DNA from: an uncultured bacterium
Lineage (GTDB): Bacteria > GCA-001730085
Reading direction: 5' to 3'
Length of the DNA stretch: 64,000 nt
Assembly (NCBI GenBank): GCA_964565945.1
Contig: CAZMGY010000012.1
Location: forward strand, 1,966-65,965
Positions 4,603-64,000 of the stretch are shown one piece after another (the first letter of the stretch is position 1; each line of letters opens with the position of its first letter). Made by a program: the position numbers and the translations under genes. The notes under the pieces are model-generated. The model made no database searches, had not been told where the DNA came from, and saw only the letters and a list, made by a program, of their open reading frames with translations.

Positions 4603-6249
<1,647 letters not shown>

Positions 6250-14137: not shown

Positions 14138-14237
14138 GCCCTTTTCTGCGTAGCTATTTTCAATGATTTTTTTTGTGTTAAGGAGATAAACTATTGCTAT
14201 TCTTTAGAGAGTGGGTTAGCATGGGGACTCATTTTTT

Positions 14238-14311: not shown

Positions 14312-14380
14312 AAAATACTTTTCAAATTTTAGAGTCTTTAGGCTATGATGAACGACATAGTCACATGAAGGATCGAAAAA

Positions 14381-22016: not shown

Positions 22017-22092
22017 AATATCAATCGAGTGCTGAGGGGAGTGGTACCTTCTTTTTTTTGTTGGTTTAATTAATTTTTTTTGAAGTTTAATA

Positions 22093-23775: not shown

Positions 23776-24207
23776 CCTCTTGGTTGACTTTAATATAAAC
23801 TGATGATGTGATCCTTGGGCTTGATCTGTAGGATTTCTGTTTTGAATTGAAGAATGGAGAGGGCTGGGACAGAGATCGTTACAGAATATCACCAAACATC
23901 ACCTATCTGGTTAGATACACCTATGCCAAATAAAGGAGCAAGCCATGTCATTCTCTCAAGCATTTCTTACTTACAAAACCCGCAAAGATAAACATGATCA
24001 AATACCGAACCTAATGGCAAAATAAGTGTGTTGTGTGTGAAAAAGATGGACACTTACGTCCCAAGTGGCATTATTCAGGTGATTTTGGAAAAAAGGATGC
24101 AAAGATAAGGTAAAAAATTAGCAAAAACCGTTATATTTTAGAAAAATGTGATGGTTGAGGGTGTGTGGGTAGGTTTTAGTTTGTTTAGCAATGGATTCAG
24201 GACTGTC

Positions 24208-30327: not shown

Positions 30328-30361
30328 GTTCATAGTATAATGTAACAGATTTTTTTGAAGA

Positions 30362-34367: not shown

Positions 34368-34368
34368 T

Positions 34369-35811: not shown

Positions 35812-35847
35812 CAGCTTTAATTAAAGGTTAACAAATAGATTTGAATC

Positions 35848-35877
35848 TTGACTTTTTTGGAGGACTTGAGCTATAAT
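35848..35877 (+). promoter_or_regulatory. sigma70-like promoter for the giant gene (-35 TTGACT, 18-nt spacer, -10 TATAAT)
   Basis: TTGACT at 35848-35853 and TATAAT at 35872-35877, about 65 nt upstream of the giant ORF ATG. GGAG RBS at 35931-35934. Confidence 0.5.
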
Positions 35878-35942
35878 GTACGTTAAGCAGTAGTATTTTT
35901 GCAAGATAATCAATATTGGCGGTAACTGTAGGAGCAGATCAT

Positions 35943-38900
35943 ATGCAAAAAGTTCAAGATAAATCACGAATCCTGGCACAGTCGCGATTATCTTCCTTCA
36001 TGAAGGTAATGTCATTGTTAGTTGTTGAGTTTTTTATAGCAACGTCAATGGATTTGGCTTACGCACAGTATTCAGCTCCCAGTGCGATTCGCAATGCCTC
36101 GCATGGATCAAACTATTTGCGTGGTCTCAATTTACATCAAGAAAGACAACGACGCAAGAAACTTAAAAAGCGTCGTGATCAGCATAGTTCTCAACGCAAT
36201 CGTGCTATTTCGGGTTTAACCCAGCAGTCCTTGGCTCATAAGTTACAGTCTTTTGGAGCGGAGGCACTTTATCAATTTGAAGAAATGCGAGCAGTGGCAG
36301 AACAAGCGACTCAGACACTTGATGATGCCCTTAAAAATTTAACGGCCTTTGTTGAGCCCGATAAAGATGGCATTGGGGTTAGACATTATCGTCTCGGTCG
36401 TTTGGATAAACTTGAAAACGTTTACGAAAATAATGCGGATGGATCTGCTTATCGTCGTACAGTGCTATTCAATTATGTCGATGACGGCGACCCCGATTCG
36501 GAAATAGCGTCTTACGTCGAGATGCGCCAATCAGTTTTTGTTGATGAATCGGGTCAAGAGTATTTAAGTGGTATTTATTCGAGTACAGAATGGAGGGGGC
36601 GTTACGATTCTGATGGTAATCTTGCTGAGTTTACGCGTGTGGATACCGATGATTTTGGTGAGGTGGTGACAACACGCTGGGAAGCTATGATTCACGATGA
36701 AAAAGGACAAGCGTTGACGCATGACGAAGATGGACAAGAAATTAAATATTTCGATGAGCGTGGCAATGTTTTAGGATACACCGAAATGATCACTGACTCC
36801 GAAGGGAACACAACTTCTACTGTACGATCTCCCTTCTATACGTCATACGATGACGTGGAGGATCGGGTAACATCGTTTCTGGATATTTATACCGATGAGT
36901 ATGGTCATAAAACGCAAACACATATGACGGAAATGGATTACGTGACGTTGGATGATTTAGGACATTATCGTAGTGAAATCACTGACTTGGATACGAAAAA
37001 AATGACAACGGTGATCTATGATGCGACTTATATGAGCCAGCGAGATGGTGGAACTGGAAACCGTGTGATTCAGTCGTCGGAGGTTCGAATAAATCACCGT
37101 GGAGAGAAAAATACCACCTTATGGGTTTTGGGAGATAAGGGGTATGACAAGTATGGAAATGCCCTAAGCTACGAGAAAAGAATCACTTCCGCTGATGGGC
37201 GTTACGAAGTTGAGCGTTGGGATAATGGTCAATTCCATCATGGAAACCTCTTGTCCTATGATAGTGAGCGAGAGCTGTTCAATGCTTTAGGTCAATTGAT
37301 TGAGCGTGAGAAAGTACTCTCGTACGAAGCTTTTTACGATGGTCGCGGTAATCTCATTGACTATATAAGGGAGTCGACTATCACTACTTATCGCGATGTG
37401 ATCGAGGAAAACCTTCTCGATTATTTGTGGGAGGACTTTTCTGAAACTATGGAAAGTTTAGACCAAGAAGGTCAACGTCAGTTTTTGATTTCACAAGGAG
37501 TTGATATTTCTGATGAGGAGTGGGAGATTTTGGACCAAGATATTTGGGATCGTGAAACCCTGCGCGAAAAAATTTCTCGTTTTGTTGAGCAGGTGGTCGA
37601 TTTAGTTAAATGGGAGTTGATTTCTCAGTCGGCCTGGGATGCATACAGCTTGGAGCAAAAACGAGCCTTTTTGGCTGAAACTGATTTTGTGATTGATGAT
37701 GTTTCTTGGTCAGGTTTAACAGAAGAAGCGAAGTTGAATTTGGTAAATGAGCGTAAAAATCAACGGATTGAGCAACACCAGTTGAGCATCTTAGATCAAG
37801 CTTTGGACAATTATCGAGCGGACGAACGCGCCAAGTTGATTGACGAGAAAAGTGTTGAATATGCAACGCTTGTTTTGAAACGAACTGATACAGTTATTTC
37901 GTCAGGTTTGTGGAATCAGTTGACCAATTTTCAGAAACAAATTTTTCTTAATGCCCGCTCGATTGAAACGGCAGATAATTTTTTCGATTTAGACACAGAG
38001 GCTCAATTTGAAAGTTTACCAAGGCATTACCGCGGAAAGTATCGCGAGCAAGATCATGTGGTTGTCACCTCTGAGGTCACAGAGCATTGGCATAAAGCTA
38101 AGTACAGTGATAACGATTTGCTGTTGTACAATGAGCAAGTGACCGACACGAATGTTTATCGCGAAGAAGGAGATGCTCGTGAATTGATCCAGAAGACCAA
38201 GGAAACAAATATTCGAAATGCTCAGATGGATGACTCCTATGCGAAAGGTCGTTTGCAGCATTACAAAGATTACAATTATGTCGAATACAGAGACCAGGAA
38301 AATGAGTCGGTTCAATCAACGTTTTCTGAAAACGAAACCCGCGTTTTAAGCTTTAATTCGCGCCGTGCAGCTACGGCATACGAAACAGAAAGTCGTGTGG
38401 TTAAAGACCTGTATGCACGTGATGATGTGCAAACGGCCATTGAAAAGTTATTCTCAGAAGATATGTATGAGCTTGCCAAACTTGTCAAAAGCTTATCGGT
38501 GGGTGAGTTTAATACCATGTTTAGGGGCTTTGATTACTTGAATGAACGTTTCAATGCTTACCCGAACTATAGCCAGTTTCTTAAAGTTGTTGATGATAAT
38601 TCTGAACTTTTGAAAAATTTGCAAGATGAAATCAAAACGAAGGGTTTGCCAGGTTCTTTACAGTTTAATTTTGCCAAAATGATGAGCAGTTTAAGCTTCG
38701 CCAACTTTCCAGACTTTGCCAAGGTTATGACTGATCTTCCAGCAACAACTGAGACATCTTTGCGACGAGAGAATATCGTGTTCGATATTGATAATCGCAT
38801 GATGGGTTATGAGGAAAGCGGTACGAATGAGGACGGCCAAGATTACACCACGCAGATGTACGATATCAAGTACGACGGCCGTGGCTTAATGTCCGAATAC

Positions 38901-41900
38901 GGCAACAGTTCTACGGTTGAAGGTGTTCGTACTGATGTTCATCGTTTCAATATGGCTTATGATTTGCAAGATCGAGCTTTGGGTTACACCGAAGAGATTT
39001 ATTCTCAAGGTGAATTTAATGTGGTACAGATGAAGCAAATGGTGTATGACTTTGCCCAACGTTTGTCGGGTTATGAGCGTTATGTTTTTGGTGAAACTGG
39101 TCAACAGGTGTCTTGGGAACGTCAAAGTGATATGGTCTATGATAACCTAGACAACGTCTTATCCTACAATGCTCATCGAGTGAGTGGTGGACAAGAGTCT
39201 GTTGATATTCGATGGGAGGCCGTTGTTTTTGATGCCCAAGGTCGTGTCATAGAAGGATCTCCCTACAATGAAGATGGTCGTATTTTAGGTTTTCGCGAAA
39301 CGGGTGTTGATGTGGCGACACAGCGGCGTTACGAAGTTGTTTCTAGCGGCTATGAGTATTCTGTGGTACCTGAAAAAATGAACCGTGCTGTGCTCTCTTA
39401 CAACACCCAACGCAATGAATACGACTCTCAAGGGACTTTGATGGAAACCGAAAATGTGATTTGGTCCGCTAAGGTTAATGAAAAGAATCAGTCCTATGTG
39501 AATGGACAAGTGGTTGGTTATATCGAAGAGTCAACCAATAGCGTGGATGGCAAGCATAAGACAGATGTTCAGAATAGTTATGATGAACGTGGTAATCGTG
39601 TGGGCGTGGATACATCGATCCATTTTTATACTTTTATGGGAGCAAAAAACCGAGTTGAAAAAAGCGTTTGGGAAGGTGATTACGACGAAGATGGTCTCTT
39701 GGTAAATTCACGTCAGTCCTCGACGGTTAACGGTGTTGCTGTTGATACGATTTCTTATAGTGGGGAATCTTTGGAGCAATATGTGATGGCTTTGGAACAA
39801 GGCCTGTACACGATTGATTTGCGCTATCTTCTGAATGATATTAGTGGCGATGGAAGTGTTGATGCGGTTGACGTGGCTGTTTTTACCCAAAAATCCTATC
39901 AAGAGTTTTTGCAAGCTGTGCTCAATGATACGTTAACTCTTTCTGCCTTAGAGCAGGCGGTTAACCTTTATATTAGCGATGATGCTTTACATAAGAGCAG
40001 TTTGGTGGACATGATTCAATTGATGAAGCGGGGCGAGGGTGACCAAATGTCTCAAACAGAGATGATCCAGGATATTTTGAAATTTTTGATCAAAGATAGT
40101 AATGGCGATGGTCAAATTGATGCGGTGGATGTACGTTTTATGACTGAACCCGCTTTAAGCATGTTATTAAATGACACTTTAGCTCAATCTAAGTCTGTAG
40201 GAGATTTGGCGCAAGATTTTCTTAAGCTTTACCTGACTGATCGTAATGGAGATCAGAGGATTACTTCCGATGATTTGCAAAATGATGACCAAATTCGAAC
40301 CACGATCAACACTGTCCTGAAAGATCGCTGGACGGAGAGTGTGCGCGAAAATATTTCTTACAAAGAATTGAGCTTTCGTCGCGTGAGAGATGGTCAAGTG
40401 GTTGTTGAAAAGGTTCGTATTGGAAATCCGGTCACCTATCGAGAAATCACACGTCGTGCTGAGTCTCCACAGCTTTGGCAAGTGAGTGATGTGAGCGACA
40501 TCAGTTTGGACGGTGATGGGACAATGTTGAATTATACATCGATGATTCAGAACATCGAAACAATTGACGACAAAAGTTTGCTTAATTTTAGCTGGGGAAA
40601 AGTGAGTGCCAATATTGATCAATACGCCGATCCTGAGGGTGTTCGAACTTGGGAACTTCGTCGATACAAAACCCTCCAAAGAAATGCTCGTGGTTTTGTG
40701 ACACGATACAGTGAACGACGGACGGAGCCACAAACAGATCCTCAAAAGGTACAAAGCTTTGAGGCAACGCCTCTTGTGATTGATATCCACTGGTCGGGAA
40801 CGTATCGAAATGGTCAGATGTTTACTTTTAACGAATCTAAGAGACGTCGTGGGGAGGTGTTTGTTAAAAATCACTATCAAGGCAAAGATTTATTGCAGAT
40901 GATGGAGTCTTTAGTGGAACAAAAAAGCTACAATGTTTATTTTGATTTGGTTAAATCAGATGGACAAGCTGGAGTCGATGCGAAGATTACTCAAGAAGAT
41001 CTGGACTATTTAAGGAAACATTTGCTTCGAGACCCTAACTATATTATTGAGTGGGTTGAAAGCGATTCGTTAGACGTTTTTTCGAGAGATGAGCGTGTTT
41101 ATACCTTATATAACACCTTAGGTCAGGTGACTGGTTTTCAAACCCGCAGTTTCAATTCGGCGTCGCCTCGCAAAGAAACCATTTTGACACGTTCCAATAT
41201 TATGACAAACGATTTGGGTCTCGAAATGTCCTTTAACGAACATGTTCAAAAAAAAGGCGAGGGAAGTCAATTTTGGATTGATAGCAGTGAAGCCAATTTG
41301 CCAACTGAGTGGGCTACCCTGACTCTTGATGAAAAACGTCAGCTTTTACGGGGAGAAACCATGGTTCTCAATGGGCGCAATGTTTCTTTGGTCAAGATAG
41401 GGACATCGCATATTTATAAAGATATCTATACGTTTCAGGCCAACACTGTTTATGATTACGCTGGTCGAGTGAAGGGTTTCACGCGATCTGATCGTGAAAT
41501 GGGCCAGAATCAACAAGGCTGGCGTGTGTTAGATGTGTTTAATGTTACCGAGCGTCGAGATATGGCTTATGATAAAGCTGGTCGCTTAAGCACTTTTACC
41601 GAAACTCGCCGTTTGGGGCAGGCTCCAGATGTGATTGAAACCATTGAACGACTCAGCACGGAGTATAACGACGCAGGTTATGTGGATGCTTTTGAGCAGG
41701 TTGAATCTCGCAAAGGAGAGCAACAGGAAACACGGGTTCCTTTCGGGGCCTTGCCTGCTTTTTTGAAAAAAAATGCCCTTTTAACGCCGGCGCAGATTGC
41801 AGCTATTTATAGTGGTCAGCGCGTAGATATTTCTGAAGTTGTTAATGAGAATCGCGACTTGTTTGCTGATATGGATGGCTTAGAGCAAGTGGGCGACAGT

Positions 41901-56900: not shown

Positions 56901-59900
56901 TTTAAGCGTGCCCAAAAATGGACTGAGCATAGCGAATCTTATGTTTATAATCAAGCACGGACCAACGCTATGAAGCTGTTTGCCGAAGAGTCGGCTCGTC
57001 ATATGGACAGCTTGCCAGAACGATTTGCTTTAACTAACGATAGTTATACAATGACGGAGATTAAGGATGCGATGGTGAAGGCTATTGAACCTGTACTGGC
57101 CAAATCAATTACGCATAAGGTCGACCGTCAAAAAGCGGCGCGAAAGTTGGCTCATGAGATTCTCGAGTCAGGGGCGACAGCTGGCCTGATTAAAGTCGAA
57201 AAGGCTCTTTATTTGGAAACGGTCTCTTTGTTTAAATTGCCTCAAAATATTGGCAAAGTGATTGAACAAGCTGACTTGCCAGCGCCTGTTAAAGAAGCTT
57301 TACTTCGCGAAGTTGTGTTGGATCAGATTGTTAGTGCTCTTCGTCTGGAACGGGTTAGTTTAGGAAACAGTGGGGAAGGGATGATTGAGGTTTTGAGCAA
57401 AAACTCCGAAGGACGTTCGGAACTTCTCTTTAATTATGCCAAATTAATTGAGCTAATTCGTAAAGAAGGTGGCAAGCTGGATGCCAGCAAAGAGGTAGAG
57501 TTGTTGCGTATTTTGGAAGCCACTCTCTATGAAGTGACTGGCTACAGTAAAAATAACGCCTATCGCGAAGGAATAAATTACGAAGTCAAGTGGTCGAAAT
57601 TCAATGAGAAATATGTGGGCAAAGGCGAGCAACAAGGTATGATCAATATGGAAAAACTGGTTCATGATTTGGTCGAAGTTTACAAAAAACGTTTTGCTGG
57701 AGAGTTGAGTGAGGCGGCCGTGGAAACCTTAGGGCATGCCACGGGCATGTTTGTGACCTTATCACGTCAAGCCGATACTTTTGCTAGACATTGGGAAAAA
57801 GCGGAAAAAGTTTCCTTCAGTTTTCTGCCGATTCAGCTTGAGGCGGTGTTGGCGATGTTGTCGGGGGGTAACTTGGCTCTTCAAATTCCAACAGGTTTTG
57901 GTAAAACCAACGTGATCACGCCATTCTTTGCCTTAACTTTTTTAGGTGCGGGTGAGTACTTCCCTAATAGCAAAAAGTTGATTCTGGAAGTACCCGAAGC
58001 GGGTAAGGTTGGCGAAATGGATAACGCCCAGTTCAAAATGATTCTCGAAAAAGAATTCGGAGAGGGTGCGCGTGAGCGTTTAACCGCTCAGATGCTTGAT
58101 GCTCAAGTGACATCGAATCCTTTGGAAATGCAACGCTTAATGAAAGCCAGAGTTGTTTTTACCGCGACCGATTGCCTCAATTTTTTGGACTTGTCGGCGC
58201 GGAATCCGCACAAAGCTAAAGATTCCAATGCGATCGCTTTGCGTGATGCTTTAGTTAAAGGTACCACGAGGATTGTGGATGAGATTCATAAATTTGTAAC
58301 CCAGCAAAAGAGCTTTGTGACGGGAACGGATGCTGGTGAAGTGGCTGTGGGTGTGCGCGATGCTAAATTAGCACATTACATTACGGAACAAGCTTTGAAC
58401 TTGATTCAGGAAAAACTAGGCAAGGGCGAAGCTATCTATAATTCTCAAGGAGGTTTTGCCTCAGGTGCAGAGAAGGTTTTACTTGGGAAACGAATGGGGC
58501 AGGGTGTTTTACGCTTTAATCCTGAACGTGTTGGAAATACGGATGTGGCTTTTAGTGCTGCTTTTAAAGTGGAGTTATTGCGGAGGTTGCAAACCAGTCG
58601 ATTGGATGGGTTTAACTTGAGCAGTCAGGCCGCAAAGCTTATGGATCGTTTTGGTGGCCGTGGTGAAAAAGAATTAGCGAATCGCTTGAAGACTCTTTAC
58701 AAGGTGGGTGAACACGATGTTTATTCGGCACCTCAGTTTGTTTTCCATTATTTGGATCATTTGGCGCAGTCCTTTTCGGGACGGACGCGTGTGAAGGAGT
58801 TGCAAAACCGTTATGGTCCCAACCAGGCTTATGAGGTTTTATTGGATTCGAAAAGCAAAATGATTGAACGTGATGAGCATGGTGTGCCTCGGGTTGTTCC
58901 GATGAGTGGTGGGGAAAAACAAGTTAGCCAGAAATACTCGAATCGTGAACATGTTCTATCGATCTATTATTCAACGCTGGCTCAGCATATGTTTCAAGAT
59001 GGTCGTTTTACGGGCAGTTGGAAGAAATCTTTGATTCAGGATGCTAGTCGCATTAAATTACAGCCTGATTCCTATCGCTTGAAGTTAAGCGATCACTTAG
59101 AGATGGCCACACGCGCTGGTCGTGTGCTGGGTTTTTCTGGATCGGTGGTAGGTTCTCAGCAGGCGTTTGAGTTTATGATGGGGATGAAAGTTTGGACCTC
59201 CCAAAGAGCCGAATATAAATTGGCTGGTGATACCGTCGGTAAGTACGTAATTGATCCGATGATGCGTTTGCATCAGAACGAAGTGAGTCAAATTGATAGC
59301 CACGGTATGCGAGAAAAGTTTGAAAAAGCCTTAACCGAAGGTGCCACTGTAACCCCACAGTATCGTCAAATGATTGAGAAACGCTTGAAAGAGCGCTTAC
59401 GTTTCGAAAAAGAAAGTCGAATGGAATTAGCTCAAATCGAAGGACTACTTAAGGAAGTTCCTAAGATTAAAGATGCTTTGTGGCTTCGTGAAAAAACATC
59501 AAGCTCAGAAGGCAAAGAGGCGATTCGTCCTGGTAGCACGAATCCTTTAACCCAACGTTTATTTAATGAGGCGCTGAGACATCAAAAAATCTATGATTTA
59601 TCTGCCAAGCAGGTTAATGAAGGCTATTTGAAGGATCGTACCATCAATCATGACAAGTTGTCGCCGCAGGATCGTTCGGCAAACTATGAAGTGATCAAAA
59701 ATGAAATTGTGGCCGAAGCTAGCTATTTAAGAGCTAAGCATGAGCAAGCTTTGCGTCATCAAGCCGAAATGGAAAAAGGTACCCCTCTTACTAAGCGAGA
59801 GCTTGAAACACTTCGCGAAAAAGTGATGAGCATCGAAGAGACGCGCCAGTTGGCATCGCGTTTGATTGAGCTCAAAACTCAAGGGGATGTGTTAGGGCGT

Positions 59901-62900
59901 CATATTGTCAAGCAGATAATTGGTGACGGGTATGTGGCTCTTAAGGAAAAAGGTATTACGGCCGAAAAACTGATGGAGAGGCTTGAAATCCAAGTCCAGA
60001 ACATGATTACAAAGACGCTGAAAAAGATCCCTACCGACTCTTCGATAGAGGGTCATCACGCTCTCGTGGTGGATTATACGGTTTCAACCCGAATGGAAAA
60101 TCTACATACTCTGCTCGAGGAAGCGGCTAAGGCCAACAAAGATGTGATTGTTAAGGATTTGACTGGAGAATGGCGTTTGTTCTTGCATAAAGAAAAACAA
60201 AATTGGGTTAATCGTGAAACAGGTCAGATTGAATTTTCACGTACTTTGCGCTTCGATCAAGATATGGCCAAGTCGTTGCTTGATAAAGGTAAAACAGAGG
60301 TTCCTGCCGAATTTGTGGCCGAGATACAAGCCCGTGGTCTAAAACTAACCCAGGGTAGAAAAGGTGAAATGCTATTGTACCGCAACGGTAGCGAACCTGG
60401 TCAGTTGAATGTAGATATTGGAGCTGTTTATTTATTCCCCGCGGGTGCGACGGGAACCAACTTGGAGATGAAAGCGAGTGGAAAATTTCGCCAAAAAATC
60501 ATTAAGATTTTTGATCGTCAGATGCTCGAGAAAGAGTTTCAACAAGGTTTGGGTCGTGATCGCGGAGTGCGTGTTGAACCTGTGGACGGTGTGGGTTTTA
60601 AATTGCCATCGGAGCGTCACGTTTACTTTATGTCGCCCGAAGGTAAATACCAGTATGAAGGGGTGAAGGGGCAGGTGAAAACGGGTAATATGTTGCACAG
60701 CAATGGAACGGTTGATTTGCATCAGCTGTTTCATATGCTTCGCACCAACCAAGAAGTGAATACTAAAGTACAAAACTTTCGTCAGGCCAGTGAAGCTTTG
60801 TATGAACCGCATAATCGGGTGGTTTCAGAAGTGTTGCGCTTAATTCGTCCTCATGAAGAACAATTGTTCCATGTGAAAAAATTGCTTAAAGATCACTTGA
60901 AAAACATTCAGAACGAAAAGCGCGAAGCCTTTCGTGTTTCCCTTTTGGAGACTAAGAGTACAACTCTCGTTTTGCAAGATATGGCGCGTAAAGCTAACAA
61001 TCAAATGATTAAGTTGCTTGATGCTCTCGAAGGGAAGGGCCTAAAAATGAATTTTGCCAATCTTATGGGACAGGGAGAAGTGTTGTCAGCGATTAATCGC
61101 ATGCCAGCCAACCGCACCTTCAACCTTCTTCGCAGTGATGTGAAGGAGCTTTTGCAAACGCATCGAGATGGTTTAAAAGGCGACTTGCGTTTTGCTGATA
61201 TTAGTCGCGCTGTACCTGAAGGTGGTTTGATGAATGCGAAAACAATGGCTGATGTGATTAATGTGATTAGCAGTTTGGGTCGCGATGCTTTATTGGCTAA
61301 AACTAGCCAACGGACGTATTCGGGTGAAATTTCGCGTCAAACAGTTTCGGCCAAATCGATGTCTGGTTTGGCTGAAAATGCTTACAAACGATTGCGTTCT
61401 GATGGTGCTATTAGTCAGAAACAATGGCAACTGGCTCAAAATCGAGCCAAAACCAAGATGATGAAGTTACATCGCTATAGCAAAGTTCGCAAACGTTTGC
61501 GTTTGGACGAAGCGAACCGTAGCGATGGTGTTAAGTCCAATAGTTTCTTCAAACGGATGTGGAATTATCGTTCAAACCAAGAGAAACGTAAGCCTGTCTA
61601 TGCTCAGTGGAATGTTGAGACGCGTGATGAGCAGTTTGAAAAAGTGATGAAGTCTGACGCTCTCTTGCGCAGTGAGTACATGGTGGAAACCATGAATGCA
61701 TTGTTTGCCCAACCCGACGTCGCAATTGAAAAACGTTATCGTGAAGCTCTCGATAAAGTCGTTAAAACTTTTGGTGCCAAAAGTTGGCGCCCCGCAACTC
61801 CTAAGGTTTTGGATGCAGATTCCTTGTATAAACTCTACACTGAATACCATTTTTACAATAAAACGGCGTTGCTGATGCACGTGAAAGAGTTTGATTGGTT
61901 GCGTGAACTTTTTTTTGGAGAACTTAATGTGGATAACGATACCGTTGTATTAGATGATGGCGTATCGGTTTTTGCTCACAAGGATATCACGGCGCAGTTA
62001 GAAAAAATGGTCACAGACGAGCTTAGTCCGTTGCACCAAGCGATCCAAGCGAAACATGCTTCGGATAATGCTGTTAGGGTTCAGCAAGTGACGCTTAATT
62101 CGCGTTGGACTGGCGAACAAAGCGATCAACTGATTCATGTCTCTGTCCAGTTTTCTGATGAATTGACGGGGGATAGTTACCAAGAGGATGTGACCTTTGT
62201 TTATCGCAATTACAAAAGGTTCCTGTGGCAGCTCCCAAATCATCGGCAACTTGTCACAGTGGCCGATTATTTGGGAGCTGCCACAGGAACCTTTAATGAA
62301 AACAAGGTGTTGAAGCTGGGTGAGCTTGCTGGACGTGAAGTACTTCGTAAGATGAATACTCGCATACGTACTGAACTAGAAGCAGAACAATCTTTTAAAA
62401 TATTCATTCAAAAAGCTTATCAAGATGGTTTGGATTTGGCCAAAGAGGTTGGCTTGCAGGATGAGTTGCTGCAGCGATTCTTGGAAGAATATCAAAAGGG
62501 CCTTGCTGGGACAGCACCCAATGCTTCATTAAGAGCTCGTTTGACCCAGTTGGGTACTTCTGAACACAGGGGGGCTAACTTTGTGCGCCACTTTATAGTG
62601 CTGGATCAATTGGTGCAAAAGATTGAGAAAGCTGGTGTTTTCAAAAAAGGTTCTTTGGATCGTTCCAAATTACGTCAGAAGATACTGAGTGCTCAGGTGA
62701 GCGTTCTAAAGCATGCTCGAAGCGACGCAGATGATAAACAACCAAAAGCTACGGATAAGGTTGAAGAAACCTTATCCCTAAGGCAGGCGGTGCTTAAACT
62801 TCAGCAAGAGCCAGGCAATGCTCGTTTGGAGGTCGCTATTAACGAAAGGCTCAAATTACTTGTGGAAAGCGAGCTGAAGGTTCAAACGCGTCAACGAGCT

Positions 62901-64000
62901 GATTTCTCTCAGAAAGCTTTGACATCCTATGCACCATCGGCCAAGTGGTATGCACGCTTTTTCCGTTGGAGTATTCGCCGCTCGCCGATGAGTGACAAAG
63001 ATATTAAAGCGGCTGTTAAAGAAATTGATGCCAAAGATTGGGTCAGAGATGTGATTAAAGAGGTGGTGAAAACCACAGGTGTTAATCGTGTCGGAGATAT
63101 TCTGCAGTCTGGTGATAAAATCGATCCTCATTTTGAAGACAAAAAAGACTTTAAGTTGAGAGAAGTTGCAGCTCAATCTTTGAGTTGGTTGCAAGAGCGT
63201 CGTAAACAAGAGGCTGGTATAGATCTGAATGCCATGGGCGGTTTGGGTGGATTCCCTGGAATGGATTTTGGATCGATGGCGGGTGGCCAGGAAACGGGTG
63301 AACTTGTGATTGATCTTAAACAGCTAGCTGCAGAAATGGGTATGAATCAGCAGGAGTTGCAGAACAAACTTCACGAAGTTATCTTGGGTACCAAGGAGGC
63401 GGGTGTGCGTTTGGAGCAAACACGCCTATGGCAACAACGCTATCTAACAGTTAAAATGTACAAAGAATGGAAAGCGATTATCTTGTATTTGGCACAACAG
63501 TCTCAATCGGATGCAACCATGATGGATAAGCTGCGACCCTTGTTGGAAGATATCTATGTGCATGATCGTGACAATATCATTGAATCTGGTCAAGCGTCGG
63601 TGTCACCGTTGGCCAATATGAAAACTTTAGAAGAAGTTCAAAAACACTGGTTTGAGATGAAAGAGAAGGACTACGAATTGCGTGATAAGAAAGCCAAGTT
63701 GACCCAATTGGAAGAAGATCTTAAACCTCTTTTGCCTAAAACGGAGACCCAGCAAGATGGAGATAATCTGGATTCCTCTCAAGCCGTTAAGCTTACTGAA
63801 GAACAAGAAACGAAGAAAAAGTCGCTCGAAGAACAAACAGCTAAGTTTAAAGAAGAGATTGCTAAGCTTGAAGAATCGCTTGCTGTCCTTGGAGATCAGA
63901 TGGATAAGAAGCTTCGTTTAGGAGTGTTTGCTGACCTTTATCGCGAGTTGATGGGAATTCATGGCTTGTTGGAGAAACGCTCGGAGACGGGGCAGTTAGA
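35943..64000 (+). CDS. Giant protein (at least 9,352 aa within the window; 3' end beyond the window): signal-like N-terminus, about 5,700 aa of YD/RHS-type repeats, a multi-TM block, and more than 3,000 aa of a helical C-terminal region with a DExH-like motif pair
   Basis: Hand-translated frame (position mod 3 = 0) open from ATG 35943 to the window edge with no stop. In-frame TAA at 35874. All seven short + strand ORFs the track lists after 35.9 kb lie in the same other frame (start position mod 3 = 1). Own promoter and RBS. Recurrent YD motifs (YDSDGNLAEF, YDERGNVLGY, YDKAGRLSTF, YDYAGRVKGF, FDRAGRILGY, YDGLGRLNAY, YDALGRRQTY, YDSLGRSLTQ...) and YNALGQ variants. Confidence 0.85.
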   Translation, partial: MQKVQDKSRILAQSRLSSFMKVMSLLVVEFFIATSMDLAYAQYSAPSAIRNASHGSNYLRGLNLHQERQRRKKLKKRRDQHSSQRNRAISGLTQQSLAHKLQSFGAEALYQFEEMRAVAEQATQTLDDALKNLTAFVEPDKDGIGVRHYRLGRLDKLENVYENNADGSAYRRTVLFNYVDDGDPDSEIASYVEMRQSVFVDESGQEYLSGIYSSTEWRGRYDSDGNLAEFTRVDTDDFGEVVTTRWEAMIHDEKGQALTHDEDGQEIKYFDERGNVLGYTEMITDSEGNTTSTVRSPFYTSYDDVEDRVTSFLDIYTDEYGHKTQTHMTEMDYVTLDDLGHYRSEITDLDTKKMTTVIYDATYMSQRDGGTGNRVIQSSEVRINHRGEKNTTLWVLGDKGYDKYGNALSYEKRITSADGRYEVERWDNGQFHHGNLLSYDSERELFNALGQLIEREKVLSYEAFYDGRGNLIDYIRESTITTYRDVIEENLLDYLWEDFSETMESLDQEGQRQFLISQGVDISDEEWEILDQDIWDRETLREKISRFVEQVVDLVKWELISQSAWDAYSLEQKRAFLAETDFVIDDVSWSGLTEEAKLNLVNERKNQRIEQHQLSILDQALDNYRADERAKLIDEKSVEYATLVLKRTDTVISSGLWNQLTNFQKQIFLNARSIETADNFFDLDTEAQFESLPRHYRGKYREQDHVVVTSEVTEHWHKAKYSDNDLLLYNEQVTDTNVYREEGDARELIQKTKETNIRNAQMDDSYAKGRLQHYKDYNYVEYRDQENESVQSTFSENETRVLSFNSRRAATAYETESRVVKDLYARDDVQTAIEKLFSEDMYELAKLVKSLSVGEFNTMFRGFDYLNERFNAYPNYSQFLKVVDDNSELLKNLQDEIKTKGLPGSLQFNFAKMMSSLSFANFPDFAKVMTDLPATTETSLRRENIVFDIDNRMMGYEESGTNEDGQDYTTQMYDIKYDGRGLMSEYGNSSTVEGVRTDVHRFNMAYDLQDRALGYTEEIYSQGEFNVVQMKQMVYDFAQRLSGYERYVFGETGQQVSWERQSDMVYDNLDNVLSYNAHRVSGGQESVDIRWEAVVFDAQGRVIEGSPYNEDGRILGFRETGVDVATQRRYEVVSSGYEYSVVPEKMNRAVLSYNTQRNEYDSQGTLMETENVIWSAKVNEKNQSYVNGQVVGYIEESTNSVDGKHKTDVQNSYDERGNRVGVDTSIHFYTFMGAKNRVEKSVWEGDYDEDGLLVNSRQSSTVNGVAVDTISYSGESLEQYVMALEQGLYTIDLRYLLNDISGDGSVDAVDVAVFTQKSYQEFLQAVLNDTLTLSALEQAVNLYISDDALHKSSLVDMIQLMKRGEGDQMSQTEMIQDILKFLIKDSNGDGQIDAVDVRFMTEPALSMLLNDTLAQSKSVGDLAQDFLKLYLTDRNGDQRITSDDLQNDDQIRTTINTVLKDRWTESVRENISYKELSFRRVRDGQVVVEKVRIGNPVTYREITRRAESPQLWQVSDVSDISLDGDGTMLNYTSMIQNIETIDDKSLLNFSWGKVSANIDQYADPEGVRTWELRRYKTLQRNARGFVTRYSERRTEPQTDPQKVQSFEATPLVIDIHWSGTYRNGQMFTFNESKRRRGEVFVKNHYQGKDLLQMMESLVEQKSYNVYFDLVKSDGQAGVDAKITQEDLDYLRKHLLRDPNYIIEWVESDSLDVFSRDERVYTLYNTLGQVTGFQTRSFNSASPRKETILTRSNIMTNDLGLEMSFNEHVQKKGEGSQFWIDSSEANLPTEWATLTLDEKRQLLRGETMVLNGRNVSLVKIGTSHIYKDIYTFQANTVYDYAGRVKGFTRSDREMGQNQQGWRVLDVFNVTERRDMAYDKAGRLSTFTETRRLGQAPDVIETIERLSTEYNDAGYVDAFEQVESRKGEQQETRVPFGALPAFLKKNALLTPAQIAAIYSGQRVDISEVVNENRDLFADMDGLEQVGDSYYIKLDTVTSQSEVNTLNRRTRENITYNALGFEKSFKELSVDELGVHRLTLQFDIRQNGLGQVVSFDQSVRRYLPEAREDISDTFVVLPQEISESEWKDLALAKKLAFLRGDQLVRVVQGSTIRYLTQEEFSEFSEENEPKQYEARPLRVQLIQESLLEDYARSYFESQDMAMWSYLSQEGGAMIRHRDVQEVALDELTFLSRRKATYNDFDQMVTYVDESWNASTPGLKQVSIRTSTEYDSVGNIVGFRVEDISHGELSVRKFDLNRLEVIDGQGEIAVFDMAGIGGFERLMPEEQMKLRSGKSIMIDDQEVRLAFKTVMQTFETSRVTERKNMRYNFLGQLTDYTDITIESTSPDLSLETTVSGVLYNALGQQIRLVQSQKREGTTQNEVSYQGEALIEKLHALAGLSEKGELKSQFAQWSLFDLNGDGVIDTQDIDLVEPDTLVSYLQIVELKDVQTQLRDMITYTTLGQSKGFRQISINSTEPHVREVLVRHHTAYNLAGFELSYQETVTRTGQIAQDMTSTFVMPNDWSEDQWQQLWQKGGTFDQMTEQQQRVLFTGGAVVLGDQTYQFELYTQAQKGEKPHMEVLTSSQNSHYRMIAEVVAEYGKAGAWSSQVEGYVRTLLEQILQNRSESDVINPADVQAVVNRFLEELEGTLVGDENQSQKHGEMGQNDSTEVQSQHFKILRSLLLGPEDGVNGFVLDLVDQVMNQVGAVTERSLRTITKKIVFERNEMEQRSREDATYNAFGQLMSYVDNVYEPLLNQKVTTQRLLTQFDRAGRILGYQDHVVRSGLALQNDQIDYSRVERLGSGERSWDDLTFIEVKALYRGEAVLMNGVLMTLDDLRIDKVIRLYEVEDHVRQNMVYDQNNQLRSFAEQRFNHNNQRLSTQQRSGMLYNSLGQVTEYIDNTLDEGTVELEDGSFMDLSQSSRVHRSNIQYVDNRIYAYTDVSRSSQSEETQVSVRESTHYNALGQVMAYRNNNHRFLFEGRQTILSVRNVNERTGIVYNALGQNMAYSDYQWNSSEPANASWSYRSDVQYDGLGRLNAYTDRTRTLQSPDMRETLVMNNIQHNALGLQQSYTELRIQESLLEDSQGEPLYQRLQKNNYQDITYDALGRRQTYLRSAVTSDAPDMVINTTWTALAYDEKLGVVSVYRDQSERIGTDGTRVMLTTIHDQVKFDRAGREMSYREQVTDSSRPGVKQKRLRIDTGYDTFGRVAQYEESNAQYNNNLLLNYVLTNRNNTYNTMSQVESYVEKRTTNGLESLAERYEMAYNSFGQLESYEEVTESPSTRLRMSAWGLTYDSLGRSLTQNTRSVDSEGNVNITYNWGMRYDTSGRTIFRNEDRILNGVRSLGIQWYAGLIQGSGEDENEPKFDQDGEPFFIKKPSFDEFGNILSTTEIRVDDQGHINVNVSEYSYDAYSHRDSVQSLSYSYTSNDLNDLGTIQVSEVTTTSWDVTDGYLTLTFDVLNQNGDIVGTQTVEGGYVLGSEQMQRRYLITDDGQRVLKQVGNDGEEDVYFDITYSRQSFAYNDVADQTFLGSESFKYSLSQEATGADLTDFVYESSRYRQTMYGDNNRRIQEVTLQNERGVYGWDVLRDELGIDHEVWSEVGDQLVNLRKYLVTQQNEIKVGVPGAQEQANARIAEVNSSITTLLRQAGVSSEMIRTSLNQVFGSPPSSVSLDGVIENLLGVQILSSSTLSVVDTDGYDQVSGRPLLERERQYTHRSGFDVRSDNSDWNYQKFRSGNVKIDQMLAAKDSFILVQDETRNYSYDENGVRTAIVTEDGLSGFREESFNMEYRFDGLVKSRVMLRTAPGAGGKIQTSAYNQISYTYHPNGRIAQTRVRLYESYDGVRGGGLRGLLREEVIDDVYDFERNVLVQKVSTQWGFSETDGSRLLVNRQVDDSTYSLFNRVNGLIRSMYKSEDGAENSVILDNQEIFSNYYYSSHGQVLSQSVRKLDYSVVDVEEAGLADEINGLSVTDNAETMQEKIIDTYVAWWKRRYGLEKVDGLLEHVIDVFMDLLLAPTNIARTAKDILEVAIYVLGEAFKSSKEYLRNAGYSVNEKYMSYLVGDELSHRMMSYRKDGRVSGSQDLTYDIDGVVKEKRTLSYVYEQELNETFKTNRIAAQNQRNYMWDEEGKVWSLDSGADVQITYDQFNRVSSRLVTSIDKNGHYAESTEYLFEYDHLNRVTRETQRLLDPSASRSETSSLSRSRKAIGTLKSLSEEIRDYRYDAMGQQRSVSVRQNDLGVVRAENPSEIRTSYNTVLTRTKNGAREEFFDDEGNLYQVVTHQFTFDVNDNLILDEKMTLRYNEQGQEISRQIQEIRNQKFDKNGRVLHRNTQTFDILDGQRVSVGREEVQTIYQGMNYRIQEEVITQYGYNRMQQGTEVPGVTTHVVYAYDAQNRMSKRTTVSYSDPNAQLIVVPSASALDVRNGDEGQTVEEQFIYDLSRRPIQTINKVYEGGELISENRRVSTYLTADPNDMRVDKQIVVQLDGAGEIRSIVVNSNYSYTEENRYQRGSSGAVEFGDSGSIENIGPIQRILLNTGYDTVSFTDSVDGISFDASGFMLMPSKETWGSLLNAKNKVTKKRTTSYDMLDRELHSEVKSYLQDSLIGRETVSYYYSEQRMGDDRAVIEDQRFYSQDDTFVRHIVQQNRYDALGRISQKDEFFLDPSTSSGGLIEQGVVLDSFIPKTGSLQFHRQILNMDYDGGFDRIIEQDEIVSANYIDQNNTGDGRNQITHSIFAYNNKGQIISSEKTRYQANTVQHNLEDFPRVIERETGHQYNQHGEVVSFQTLLDTYYLETLDSDQVVLRDRQGSDVTIFYHKPGQVSRRVRKNFDVTAINDLLSSAININVVQLRSGELIDTEVEQNTYDVQNRLKEVDRTFTFAGKEDAYRIYRRSLTYDSLQDRPKQEIGRNWNELDDRVTLSVTDNIFQGEFISQVFTRSSEIDVANDADRNFLLNMSSSAGVSARLNLSLESKRTVTNRVQNIHSWDSQGRAVRYSMKQYDERNPRRSTFIERKFTLFNNTDGGEDFYDETVREEIDGEVLSTREREYQAFWRDSRGRTRGYILSEKVRDKEGLLQTKQVITRLDTRFDVYDNEVKAFQEEQEYVNINLADDANVVWSMRSHVGRNVVSDYFSEGENKGRLSNETITLYKYDVAQSATNGSPVLLDREVLQREVLGYQRALANSERLTSRRYDATGHLVQHRISTSNRTFDEQDRMTLNDTVTIDKLRETRTIENMNVVSFDDFDNVVAFLQTRRVEDLNDSEILLEDQVVERRNSEFEGNLLIDSYEIVNNKLKNDVRHVIRRNRTYKFGQEASSNTYNFTVNVEDPVLRSVAVSPEQQINQILRKFGLRDVTSLDVKRQDGPEIFQDTYLKTLFARSDSEDLVGSSFTRSDTIFSDRGESYGYINYLWNKVGDYRLVKGPDGVYDYTFSQALNQFTYDIFFAGQIDLGAQGASTALSLEDHFKLENKDDVSVYLSDLETWLKTPGDNHIIYDGRDQTTGENREFTRISLRQIESFGNKGSFDFSPFMSFSPGDPFTGLKDEGLAAQVQDISLHFFNDPNVHDGVEYAHRIVRGEKRELALNRWVVGGKDRDKFNFTLVRRTDTDFYGDQVGEDFSNQGRYGQVKNYTEYSISPSGEESKVVRNNIHYYVPETLQLGQSKVNVGLERFYNETTYRRSDNFHAAHIRNHGVTGQIHHYSESSSHAGDWSDSRLEESGRIQYWEEDGEIIIHMDDFITRFSESYFVADFDKEDRKIRLKYKKGQVKSFREYTSSGEDAGTEFSSANNLYDPEGNAVFTERTVVRKRGRGIPDDNFDFEKTFNEYNSYGYLLRSHVYYNFDFAKVTTYYNMRTNSNDVGTLSHGARRHVAYMDQEDGQMYVQKYDLTGENAADKGKGFEAFLRNIYMMIEETLTNGGVFIVDKIFNSFLGFFGTDPVLEDELQIMRDNAHRVAMFRQVFEEDTKAFTKSLENLLGSEGAIIASIVLHGVLFVLAVAAMVSTGGAALPLIFAAFAFGAAYSLIQTTIYYDKYRQADTKAEKEKYLKLASKYAAYAITIPFEIVFFFTGLLGLAATALRSWDDLWDSIKGFSVMYLGFMEGLLGFPEGWIYDNMVSFMVDWVDEFGGDLGGSLAVLPLLLIMVFVAAIIAGPIAMIFVLPLLFAWADVSFLYTDEQKQNVEVKIEERQNALFTEQHRHITRTIAALIGILMLRAWSQSKAQMKHKVKLADKQIKAFNKLKQVEKQNQKNLKMTREQVVESNARIRMMEAKMWKEIKTSTDLNQAKLFWHKVGSLVSLPIRVLHFIVTIPFMVYGLLNGLMMRSLSNIRQKPISYLKGKAVDAANRSRRSQEVTKTNLTQKQEASRESFTLSQRLITSINQIRRGWDQVKDVIFRSRKERILRPLDTKSGVVGFSSGRGIMDYQRMYKGRPEVSSGLALSGVKQNESGKFEEKTPQELINTLKQSERHLAESVRKWETQTYKAYLQLKSDGVQSQSKKGEKTVSDASAVIQGERFLWDNVLPSYEVQKMDFSKMGFKKFVSRAWWGRFSTKAYWRDVWEGMKWDKRDPNDPDQPGTLAKSGRFFSRASFALKRAIMKDQAKGGSWAESVRYNALLKQQMGTKKAKVFKERLEESPQQYMRTLAQWMAEGQLREGNVNSRGGQVRHKLFMEHALKDIIAFQNGSNLSAKALDGAFWKTLHEESTQSLQGMNKFSRLELQVIEAYWNVLSKYQGANSLSGIDKLEIRKALEHELVESFVNRMDGVAVMLRYSEVRNEQGELTSYDLERAEAFMQKGFFQFSEFFLPKLRAFKNVYGGYDGREESGNMVLNRKGDSPDHFNDMYKALKENQSDAFLREVAFQFQRMPESGLFSRKLKVETKTLNSMAENLGRNNFESLTTAQQTAVLIRILERRGLLENMKKMLGEKQIELVILEHLTDAKSIQATVMELYKEATKPPTDPKAPKPTVPSDVNQLRQEFGQSNANSKVVQEMNSLFEITEPFKRAQKWTEHSESYVYNQARTNAMKLFAEESARHMDSLPERFALTNDSYTMTEIKDAMVKAIEPVLAKSITHKVDRQKAARKLAHEILESGATAGLIKVEKALYLETVSLFKLPQNIGKVIEQADLPAPVKEALLREVVLDQIVSALRLERVSLGNSGEGMIEVLSKNSEGRSELLFNYAKLIELIRKEGGKLDASKEVELLRILEATLYEVTGYSKNNAYREGINYEVKWSKFNEKYVGKGEQQGMINMEKLVHDLVEVYKKRFAGELSEAAVETLGHATGMFVTLSRQADTFARHWEKAEKVSFSFLPIQLEAVLAMLSGGNLALQIPTGFGKTNVITPFFALTFLGAGEYFPNSKKLILEVPEAGKVGEMDNAQFKMILEKEFGEGARERLTAQMLDAQVTSNPLEMQRLMKARVVFTATDCLNFLDLSARNPHKAKDSNAIALRDALVKGTTRIVDEIHKFVTQQKSFVTGTDAGEVAVGVRDAKLAHYITEQALNLIQEKLGKGEAIYNSQGGFASGAEKVLLGKRMGQGVLRFNPERVGNTDVAFSAAFKVELLRRLQTSRLDGFNLSSQAAKLMDRFGGRGEKELANRLKTLYKVGEHDVYSAPQFVFHYLDHLAQSFSGRTRVKELQNRYGPNQAYEVLLDSKSKMIERDEHGVPRVVPMSGGEKQVSQKYSNREHVLSIYYSTLAQHMFQDGRFTGSWKKSLIQDASRIKLQPDSYRLKLSDHLEMATRAGRVLGFSGSVVGSQQAFEFMMGMKVWTSQRAEYKLAGDTVGKYVIDPMMRLHQNEVSQIDSHGMREKFEKALTEGATVTPQYRQMIEKRLKERLRFEKESRMELAQIEGLLKEVPKIKDALWLREKTSSSEGKEAIRPGSTNPLTQRLFNEALRHQKIYDLSAKQVNEGYLKDRTINHDKLSPQDRSANYEVIKNEIVAEASYLRAKHEQALRHQAEMEKGTPLTKRELETLREKVMSIEETRQLASRLIELKTQGDVLGRHIVKQIIGDGYVALKEKGITAEKLMERLEIQVQNMITKTLKKIPTDSSIEGHHALVVDYTVSTRMENLHTLLEEAAKANKDVIVKDLTGEWRLFLHKEKQNWVNRETGQIEFSRTLRFDQDMAKSLLDKGKTEVPAEFVAEIQARGLKLTQGRKGEMLLYRNGSEPGQLNVDIGAVYLFPAGATGTNLEMKASGKFRQKIIKIFDRQMLEKEFQQGLGRDRGVRVEPVDGVGFKLPSERHVYFMSPEGKYQYEGVKGQVKTGNMLHSNGTVDLHQLFHMLRTNQEVNTKVQNFRQASEALYEPHNRVVSEVLRLIRPHEEQLFHVKKLLKDHLKNIQNEKREAFRVSLLETKSTTLVLQDMARKANNQMIKLLDALEGKGLKMNFANLMGQGEVLSAINRMPANRTFNLLRSDVKELLQTHRDGLKGDLRFADISRAVPEGGLMNAKTMADVINVISSLGRDALLAKTSQRTYSGEISRQTVSAKSMSGLAENAYKRLRSDGAISQKQWQLAQNRAKTKMMKLHRYSKVRKRLRLDEANRSDGVKSNSFFKRMWNYRSNQEKRKPVYAQWNVETRDEQFEKVMKSDALLRSEYMVETMNALFAQPDVAIEKRYREALDKVVKTFGAKSWRPATPKVLDADSLYKLYTEYHFYNKTALLMHVKEFDWLRELFFGELNVDNDTVVLDDGVSVFAHKDITAQLEKMVTDELSPLHQAIQAKHASDNAVRVQQVTLNSRWTGEQSDQLIHVSVQFSDELTGDSYQEDVTFVYRNYKRFLWQLPNHRQLVTVADYLGAATGTFNENKVLKLGELAGREVLRKMNTRIRTELEAEQSFKIFIQKAYQDGLDLAKEVGLQDELLQRFLEEYQKGLAGTAPNASLRARLTQLGTSEHRGANFVRHFIVLDQLVQKIEKAGVFKKGSLDRSKLRQKILSAQVSVLKHARSDADDKQPKATDKVEETLSLRQAVLKLQQEPGNARLEVAINERLKLLVESELKVQTRQRADFSQKALTSYAPSAKWYARFFRWSIRRSPMSDKDIKAAVKEIDAKDWVRDVIKEVVKTTGVNRVGDILQSGDKIDPHFEDKKDFKLREVAAQSLSWLQERRKQEAGIDLNAMGGLGGFPGMDFGSMAGGQETGELVIDLKQLAAEMGMNQQELQNKLHEVILGTKEAGVRLEQTRLWQQRYLTVKMYKEWKAIILYLAQQSQSDATMMDKLRPLLEDIYVHDRDNIIESGQASVSPLANMKTLEEVQKHWFEMKEKDYELRDKKAKLTQLEEDLKPLLPKTETQQDGDNLDSSQAVKLTEEQETKKKSLEEQTAKFKEEIAKLEESLAVLGDQMDKKLRLGVFADLYRELMGIHGLLEKRSETGQL
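36400..53500 (+). other. YD/RHS-type repeat array inside the giant ORF (protein-level repeats, degenerate at the DNA level)
   Basis: Dozens of Y-D-x-x-G-(R/N)-(L/V/I) and (Y/H)-N-A-(L/F)-G-Q motifs, typically 20-60 aa apart, across about 17 kb. Each is followed by an aromatic/hydrophobic beta-strand pattern as in RHS/teneurin YD shells. Confidence 0.6.
39835..40285 (+). other. Three dockerin/EF-hand-like calcium-binding loops within the giant ORF
   Basis: 'NDISGDGSVDAVDVAVF', 'KDSNGDGQIDAVDVRFM' and 'DRNGDQRITSDDLQND', all matching D-x-N/S-G-D-G-x-I/V-D-x-x-D. A fourth, 'DLNGDGVIDTQDIDLV', lies at 43175-43230. Confidence 0.45.
53847..54875 (+). other. Cluster of 6-8 hydrophobic (predicted transmembrane) helices inside the giant ORF
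   Basis: 'GAIIASIVLHGVLFVLAVAAMVSTGGAALPLIFAAFAFGAAYSLI', 'ITIPFEIVFFFTGLLGLAATAL', 'LAVLPLLLIMVFVAAIIAGPIAMIFVLPLLFAWADV', 'LVSLPIRVLHFIVTIPFMVYGLLNGLMM'. These sit directly after the last YD-type motifs. Confidence 0.55.
57877..58295 (+). other. P-loop / DExH-box-like motif pair (candidate SF2-helicase-like NTPase module) in the C-terminal region of the giant ORF
   Basis: 'LALQIPTGFGKTNVITP' (57877-57906). About 130 aa later comes 'TRIVDEIHKFV' (58272-58295), which resembles the RecG/Mfd-type motifs GDVGFGKT ... DEQHRFG. Confidence 0.35.

Follow-up and report, generated by a model that had tools for sequence, protein, structure and literature searches.

A 9,735-residue orphan protein with YD-type motifs, a hydrophobic helix cluster and a DEAD-like segment, encoded by an uncultured bacterium

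Introduction

The DNA considered here, referred to throughout as the window, is a stretch of 64,000 nucleotides (nt) from contig CAZMGY010000012.1 of an uncultured bacterium (assembly GCA_964565945.1), with a GC content of 42.5% and without any N. After 36 kb of ordinary genes, the last of which is trkH, the remaining 28 kb are occupied by a single open reading frame (ORF) on the forward strand that runs beyond the end of the window. Its product, the giant protein, has a signal-peptide-like N-terminus, a very long acidic part with degenerate YD-type motifs and calcium-loop motifs, one cluster of hydrophobic helices, and a Lys/Glu/Leu-rich C-terminal part in which a segment resembles the first RecA-like domain of DEAD/DExH ATPases. 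By examining the coding properties of this ORF, copies of the locus in independent assemblies and the relatives of its product in sequence databases, we conclude that it is one real, intact gene of 29.2 kb, and tentatively propose that the protein is a component of the cell envelope involved in contact or adhesion.

Results

One intact gene of 29.2 kb

The initial annotation had described an ORF without any stop codon from the ATG at 35943 to the end of the window, and this is what the sequence contains: 9,352 codons with neither a stop nor an N, in a frame that is closed upstream by a TAA at 35907-35909 and is stop-free from 35910 to base 64000. Each of the other five frames is interrupted by 272-947 stops over this stretch of 28 kb, with a longest open run of 65-236 codons; in the two other forward frames the longest runs are of 93 and 65 codons, nearly matching the fragments of 60-91 amino acids (aa) reported earlier. 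At this base composition random sequence would contain a stop about once in 15 codons, and an open run of 9,352 codons by chance has a log10 P of about -275. The GC content at codon positions 1, 2 and 3 is 0.53, 0.35 and 0.39, as compared with 0.53, 0.36 and 0.40 in 22 upstream genes; the synonymous codon usage of each quarter of the ORF correlates with that of the neighbouring genes at r=0.84-0.89 (off-frame control, 0.52); and the GC content and strongly positive GC skew of the flanking chromosome continue unchanged through the gene. Tandem Repeats Finder detected no tandem DNA repeats inside the gene, and a blastp comparison of the giant protein with itself found no internal repeats at E<1e-3.

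When the neighbouring TrkA, TrkH and BatD proteins were sought as exact matches in Logan, copies of the locus turned up in the assemblies of at least nine sequencing runs. The eight copies that were fetched (seven contigs compared) are 99.987-100% identical to the window, within 29851 to at most 45811, and the sole difference inside the gene among the copies compared is V1254I. In three contigs the giant ORF stays open to the contig end (2,085, 3,537 and 4,843 residues). In the 88,915-nt contig SRR19984991_32918, which is 99.994% identical to window 29851-45811, the gene is internal and its product, with no Pfam match on record, is 9,735 residues long; the window therefore lacks just the last 383 codons, which settles the earlier observation that the gene was unfinished at the window end.

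The window comes from a metagenome-type assembly, and the base-by-base comparison with other assemblies covers the gene only to 45811. Nevertheless, it is extremely improbable that the ORF is an artefact (a chimeric assembly, several genes joined by sequencing errors, or a non-coding open frame), given the negligible odds of a chance open frame, the uniform, host-like codon usage in all quarters, the lack of repeats able to misjoin contigs, and independent assemblies that are 99.99-100% identical over 35943-45811 and in one case yield an uninterrupted gene of 9,735 codons. The giant ORF is one real, intact gene.

The near-consensus promoter of the initial annotation is present in the 131-nt gap 3' of trkH (stop codon at 35809-35811), as a match to the consensus only; as a class such matches show no excess, with 3 found and 4.3 expected in shuffles. 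The GGAG ribosome-binding site is likewise in place, and gene callers on the independent Logan contigs put the start of the gene at the same ATG. The view that this is a separate gene and not a read-through of trkH is supported by its own start signals. The coordinates of these and all other features are collected in Table 1.

Table 1. Features of the giant gene and its product, in window positions
Feature	Position	Strand	Basis
Sigma-70-like promoter candidate, TTGACT-18 nt-TATAAT, 11/12	35848..35877	+	Consensus match only
GGAG ribosome-binding site, 8 nt 5' of ATG	35931..35934	+	Sequence
Giant ORF, codons 1-9,352 of 9,735	35943..64000, runs ~1.15 kb beyond window	+	Open frame, codon usage, complete independent contig
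Signal-peptide-like N-terminus, aa 1-41	35943..36065	+	Basic n-region, hydrophobic aa 19-36, AYA|Q cleavage-type site; read from sequence
Acidic, Tyr/Gly-rich region, predicted to be exported, with degenerate YD-type repeats (~38-50 copies)	36576..53333	+	Motif count, iterated profile, composition
Three DxNGDGxID-type EF-hand/dockerin-like calcium-loop motifs, aa 1,297-1,448	39831..40286	+	Sequence, regular expression
Fourth dockerin/EF-hand-like loop DLNGDGVIDTQDID, aa 2,410-2,428	43170..43226	+	Dockerin_1 E 0.0024 and 18.4 bits, regular expression
Cluster of 5-7 hydrophobic helices, aa 5,968-6,309	53844..54869	+	Kyte-Doolittle scans
Lys/Glu/Leu-rich part, aa 6,310-9,352, no YD motif, putatively cytoplasmic	54870..63998	+	Composition, hydropathy, motif count
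SF2 (DEAD/DExH) RecA-like domain 1 candidate	57828..58304	+	Pfam DEAD borderline, motifs by inspection
46-aa segment with relative, aa 7,634-7,679	58842..58979	+	59% identical to 138-aa ORF P0001

The predicted exported part

The N-terminus of the giant protein has the make-up of a Sec-type signal sequence. The outer part that follows, of about 5,900 residues, has a net charge of -290, contains no hydrophobic segment and is free of cysteine. It is strongly enriched in YD-type motifs: the pattern [YF][DN]xxG[RQNL] occurs 36 times, against 1.3+/-1.2 in shuffled sequences (28-fold), is confined to aa 221-5,781 and has no copy in the C-terminal part. An iterated hidden Markov model (HMM) of these copies yields about 50 matches, 38 of which exceed the shuffled control; their density peaks at aa 2,724-3,392, and their spacing is about 30 residues or more. 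When a profile of the protein's own copies is compared with the PDB, the best sequences are Rhs proteins (7q97, E 2.6e-5; 8qjd; 8qjb; Tse15; 8h8a) and teneurins; this result is partly circular because the seed expression was modelled on the YD motif, whereas the enrichment is not.

The initial annotation had spoken of YD repeats and had named matches to YD/RHS models as the test of that claim, and none lies above threshold. Pfam RHS_repeat (PF05593) has no match on the two halves of the protein and, on tiles of 700 aa, peaks at 21.1 bits where 22 are required (E 4e-4, aa 4,381-4,396), with a second tile at E 0.67; the NCBIfam models TIGR01643 (YD_repeat_2x) and TIGR03696 (Rhs core) are not reported at E<=1 on either halves or tiles. 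The Rhs core motif PxxxxDPxGL is not found, whether searched as P.{4}DP.GL or as DP.G[LW], and a phmmer search of the PDB with aa 1-5,000 returned nothing at E<=10. The claim thus holds as a motif enrichment and fails as a family assignment, and since the RHS/YD models stay under their curated thresholds the label 'YD/RHS' denotes motif-level resemblance only.

The dockerin check suggested at the same time also ended below threshold: Dockerin_1 scores 18.4 and 14.3 bits (cut-off 22.9), Pfam EF-hand_6 and EF-hand_7 fall under their cut-offs, and TSP3 has no match.

As a separate observation, a module of about 35 aa recurs between the YD-rich stretches in window 37400-44500 (aa ~510-2,840; for example at aa 589, 657, 1790, 2083 and 2803). 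Its pattern, 'W..L(T/S)..(E)K..(L/F)L.G..V.(L)NG..V.L', was recognized by eye and with a loose regular expression.

The hydrophobic cluster, the inner part and the exclusion of cysteine

Apart from the signal peptide, the helix cluster is the sole hydrophobic stretch among the 9,352 residues. It separates the outer part from an inner part of about 3,400 residues in the full protein (3,043 within the window) whose net charge is +64. The order given by the initial annotation, from YD-like region through transmembrane cluster to an NTPase-like (DEAD/DExH) segment, is borne out.

Cysteine is nearly absent from the whole chain. One residue is found in 9,352, where about 108 would be expected from the 24 neighbouring proteins (1.15% cysteine; log10 P about -45), and it is encoded by codon 7411 (nt 58173-58175), within the Ib-like motif of the DEAD-like domain. 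Some bacteria are known to exclude cysteine from their exported proteins (PMC2823432).

The ATPase-like segment

The candidate domain carries, in order, the motifs Q (FLPIQ), I (PTGFGKT), Ib-like (VVFTATDC) and II (VDEIH). Pfam DEAD (PF00270) aligns with aa 7,296-7,454 over profile positions 2-132 of 167 at E 2e-5. Its 24.8 bits fall short of the cut-off of 26, and hence the NTPase-like claim stands as regards the DEAD/DExH motif set and fails as regards the family threshold. Matches of the ATPase region in the PDB are weak only, and all are to the SF2 helicases MDA5 and DDX52. In shuffling tests, z for domain 1 is about 3 when it is compared with domain 1 of eIF4A and about 0 when it is compared with SecA. 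Candidates for motifs V and VI (AGATGTNL and QGLGRDRG) were seen by eye only.

A likeness to SecA, collinear around motifs II-III and V-VI, can also be made out by eye (DEH.G, TLA..FQ, GxSGS..AFEF, AGxxGT, QxxGRxR). It was rejected: with the E. coli SecA sequence, confirmed against PDB 6s0k (1,319 bits), BLASTP gives E 1.5 at best and the Smith-Waterman shuffle z is -0.2 to 0.5, against 1.4-3.0 for eIF4A. The Pfam models SecA_DEAD and SecA_PP_bind are unreported even at E<=10, whereas the generic DEAD model is reported, and the motif-III-like segment has no SecA match in the PDB.

Relatives in sequence databases

Among about 15 billion proteins the sole relative found for the giant protein is P0001, an ORF of 138 aa. 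Neither aa 1-1,500 nor aa 7,200-8,300 retrieved anything in word-indexed searches against 5.8 billion clusters; phmmer with aa 7,251-8,450 against 1.84 billion representatives gave one match, again P0001, and no long protein. A two-sequence profile of the giant segment and P0001 found no further relatives. Searches of JGI metagenomes and viral contigs returned no relative, and neither did tblastn against plasmids with the YD-dense part; no copy of an exact 41-mer from the window end turned up in the representative genomes of GTDB or in JGI metagenomes. PADLOC assigns no defence family. The protein libraries searched seem not to contain the giant protein itself, since the near-identical Logan copies never surfaced in these searches; relatives at 45% identity were not masked in the homologue searches.

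P0001 itself is a stand-alone ORF (89-505) on a contig of 600 nt and 25% GC (L097, ENA ERZ23832080 k127_2208690), and shares with aa 7,634-7,679 of the giant protein the motif IERDE.G..R..PMSGGEKQV.QKYS.

Host and gene neighbourhood

The 36 kb upstream contain ordinary housekeeping genes, including those for MgsA, NadC, CoaX, GroEL, ZnuA, PurA, AccC, PcrA, a PilT-like ATPase and NqrA-F, as well as a MoxR-DUF58-BatA/B/D group with TPR proteins and TrkA/TrkH. They contain no gene for VgrG, PAAR or TcA, and none of the kind associated with type II secretion systems (T2SS-like) or sugar import. GroEL (window 4615-6246) is at most 70% identical to GTDB representatives among the matches listed, the best of which are an Omnitrophota metagenome-assembled genome (70%), Verrucomicrobiota, Acidobacteriota, Leptospiraceae and others; a neighbour-joining tree of GroEL with the matches listed gives the host no affiliation. 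Judging by this gene, the host seems to belong to a lineage of which no near relative has been sequenced.

Several further observations concern the locus as a whole. Every credible gene, together with a tRNA-Ala(GGC) at 14237-14312, lies on the forward strand, and the GC skew is +0.15 to +0.27 in all 2-kb bins of the window except 22001-24000 (+0.05), which is an unusually strong asymmetry for 64 kb. Two forward-strand ORFs have no Pfam match, at 22093-23775 (560 aa) and 26157-27080 (307 aa), and the latter is situated within the MoxR-DUF58-BatA/B operon. All long independent contigs of the locus start exactly at window 29851. The 31-mers near 29830-29870 occur twice in the window, as part of an acidic low-complexity repeat (window 29790-29880) at the C-terminal end of a TPR protein (TPR/BatC-like; ORF 29023-30327), and the shared start can be attributed to a break in de Bruijn assembly at this repeat. 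The locus recurs at near-100% identity across several SRA series (SRR120081xx, SRR19984991, SRR232578xx and SRR306xxxxx).

Discussion

Similarity of layout to the giant proteins of Omnitrophota

The initial annotation regarded the order of modules in the giant protein as one not described for RHS/teneurin families. An equivalent combination has in fact been published for Omnitrophota-type giants (West-Roberts et al. 2023, bioRxiv 10.1101/2023.11.21.568195). In these proteins a long N-terminus that lacks transmembrane segments carries dockerin/EF-hand repeats, antiparallel beta-hairpins build tubes some 1,500 aa in length 'sharing features with RHS repeat proteins', and a C-terminal membrane anchor is followed by DEAD-type (SecA) domains. 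Like these 'Dockerin-type' or 'Archaeovorin' proteins, the giant protein begins with a putative signal peptide and a very long N-terminal part devoid of transmembrane segments, which contains EF-hand/dockerin-type loops and RHS-like beta-hairpin repeat motifs; a hydrophobic cluster (aa 5,968-6,309) comes after this part, at the place of the anchor; and the protein is mostly 'dark' to Pfam and unique in sequence. The module of about 35 aa may correspond to the helix pairs on the exterior of the Omnitrophota beta-helix tubes.

There are also clear differences. At 9,735 aa the protein is below both published size classes ('large', >=10,000 aa; 'giant', >=30,000 aa; 10.1101/2023.11.21.568195); SecA_DEAD and SecA_PP_bind are undetectable in it, its dockerin matches are sub-threshold and TSP3 is missing; it has no enzymatic domains or carbohydrate-binding modules; no sequence similarity to those proteins was found; and T2SS-like and sugar-import genes are lacking in the 36 kb upstream. 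At the level of sequence, the giant protein is not a detectable homologue of the Omnitrophota 'Dockerin-type' proteins.

A possible envelope protein for contact or adhesion

From this layout we tentatively favour, at somewhat less than even confidence, an envelope protein for contact or adhesion that consists of an exported YD-type fibre, a helix anchor and a cytoplasmic ATPase-like module. The N-terminal ~5,900 residues would be exported through Sec and would form, outside the cytoplasmic membrane, an extended fibre or sheath of RHS-like beta-helix to which calcium lends stiffness; the helix cluster would anchor the fibre in the membrane; and the C-terminal part would stay in the cytoplasm, where the ATPase-like module might help in the export or assembly of its own protein or couple surface events to the cell interior. 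Such a protein would most likely serve to touch or adhere to other cells or surfaces, the role suggested for the Omnitrophota 'Dockerin-type' giants. The functions of fibre, anchor and inner ATPase are inferred, after the model put forward for those giants.

Several points weigh against this proposal. None of the curated HMMs passes its own threshold anywhere across the giant protein, and SecA-type homology, which would be the link to the Omnitrophota family, was tested for without success. The AlphaFold models, a single-sequence AlphaFold2 model of aa 2,860-3,420 (mean pLDDT 30.9) and a largely helical, low-confidence one of aa 7,270-8,260 (mean pLDDT 34.3), are both unusable because there are no homologues for an alignment, and with such low confidence they bear out neither the beta-helix nor the RecA fold. 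No second RecA-like domain is apparent, as Helicase_C has no match at E<=10 in aa 7,501-8,350, and the ATPase may therefore be incomplete or degenerate. The positive-inside rule leaves the number and orientation of the helices ambiguous. The putatively cytoplasmic 3,043 residues contain 1 cysteine where about 35 are expected, a depletion for which a cytoplasmic site gives no reason. Finally, the protein has no feature that would account for the passage of 5,900 residues across an outer membrane, should the host possess one.

With regard to the ATPase-like module itself, the Q, I, Ib-like and II motifs occur in the order and spacing canonical for SF2 DEAD/DExH helicases (PF00270). Unlike in those helicases, the module lies just under the Pfam cut-off, has no Helicase_C, is embedded in what appears to be a membrane protein, and shows stretches of ~280 aa and ~300 aa where motifs III-VI should follow.

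Alternative explanations

The strongest alternative, which we consider unlikely, is a giant effector or toxin that is secreted or transferred from cell to cell. The YD-like part would bind the target, a role we regard as equally unlikely; the hydrophobic cluster might serve, again improbably in our estimate, as an insertion or translocation module like those of large clostridial or MARTX-type toxins; and the delivery of the Lys/Glu-rich C-terminal part with its ATPase-like module into the target cell seems no easier to accept. Such a protein would suit the exclusion of cysteine, which affects the entire chain and does not spare the C-terminal 3,043 residues (the trait of exported proteins in PMC2823432), and the fact that the positive-inside rule yields no clean anchored topology; there is also a precedent in giant virulence-factor-like proteins reported to be transferred between bacteria (bioRxiv 10.64898/2026.03.19.712371). 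Against it, Pfam, NCBIfam and PADLOC detect no toxin, protease, glycosyltransferase or autoprocessing domain in the protein, no secretion-system genes adjoin the gene on its upstream side (the sole PilT-like ATPase is encoded 20 kb upstream), and an N-terminal Sec signal alone is insufficient for release.

It is more doubtful still that the giant protein and the Omnitrophota SecA_DEAD giants are genuine homologues that have diverged very far, and that its ATPase is a SecA-type motor exporting its own protein. In favour are an arrangement of parts shared with the 'Dockerin-type' proteins, a long insertion following motif II that looks SecA-like by eye, and an Omnitrophota genome among the best GroEL matches listed. 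Against it, generic DEAD is recovered where both SecA models are not, SecA scores like shuffled sequence while eIF4A scores above it, the phmmer search with the ATPase region met no long protein, and GroEL is equally close to several other phyla among the matches listed.

The giant protein resembles Rhs and other YD-repeat proteins (the Rhs effectors of type VI secretion systems, TcB-TcC of ABC toxins) in its many copies of the YDxxGR(L/I/V) hairpin motif. Its own copies are less dense, at irregular intervals of about 30 aa or more, and stay under the thresholds of the curated models, and neither a core motif nor an enclosed toxin nor partners for delivery are found. That the protein is a canonical polymorphic toxin of the Rhs, Tc-toxin or teneurin family, with a YD shell around a C-terminal toxin, is in spite of the motif enrichment and the PDB matches of its own-repeat profile largely refuted and very improbable, since there is no core motif and no model above threshold, the YD-like region of ~5,600 aa amounts to several cocoon lengths (4-8 times that of Rhs), what follows the repeats is no small toxin but a membrane cluster and then over 3,000 residues, VgrG, PAAR and TcA are not encoded in the 36 kb upstream, and aa 1-5,000 drew no PDB match.

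The likeness to teneurins invites a more speculative idea. Teneurins are YD-shell proteins of eukaryotes that span the membrane, which divides their intracellular domain from a YD-repeat ectodomain, and the giant protein would share this arrangement. Unlike them, it would have the opposite polarity (N-terminus outside, C-terminus inside), several helices instead of the one helix of a type II protein, and an intracellular part of 3,400 aa with an SF2 motif set; it has no EGF, NHL, FN-plug or Tox-GHH parts. It is conceivable, although doubtful, that it represents an undescribed family, an 'inverted bacterial teneurin', in which a cytoplasmic SF2 ATPase is covalently coupled through a helix bundle to a YD-type calcium-binding fibre. 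With similarly slight expectation, it might be a single-chain, ATP-driven contact appendage of a deep-branching lineage outside Omnitrophota, independent of the SecA-bearing giants.

Significance

Bacterial proteins of more than 9,000 aa are not as rare as the initial annotation had it. Published catalogues list 5,761 proteins of at least 10,000 aa, about 80% of them singletons at 30% identity (Nielsen & Lui 2026, bioRxiv 10.64898/2026.06.07.730766), and UniProtKB has more than 41,000 proteins of at least 5,000 aa (PMC11573180). In a set of 916 proteins from published catalogues, 15% have no Pfam match and 39% have a signal peptide and transmembrane helices. Since the catalogues already contain many comparable very long proteins, an orphan of 9,735 aa with such a layout is no new category, and on its own the giant gene leaves the current picture of bacterial giant genes unchanged.

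What it adds is a complete and independently re-assembled example of a very long protein, probably of the envelope. It is notable for bringing together YD-type repeats, a putative membrane anchor and a presumably inner DEAD-type module without detectable SecA homology, for its orphan status among ~15 billion proteins, and for its exclusion of cysteine; the near-absence of this residue over 9,352 positions is a concrete and testable oddity. Its recurrence at near-100% identity in many sequencing runs brings it within reach of metatranscriptomics and proteomics. Should the layout have an origin separate from that of the Omnitrophota proteins, this would speak for the 'huge beta-hairpin ectodomain plus inner nucleotide-binding module' as a recurrent solution.

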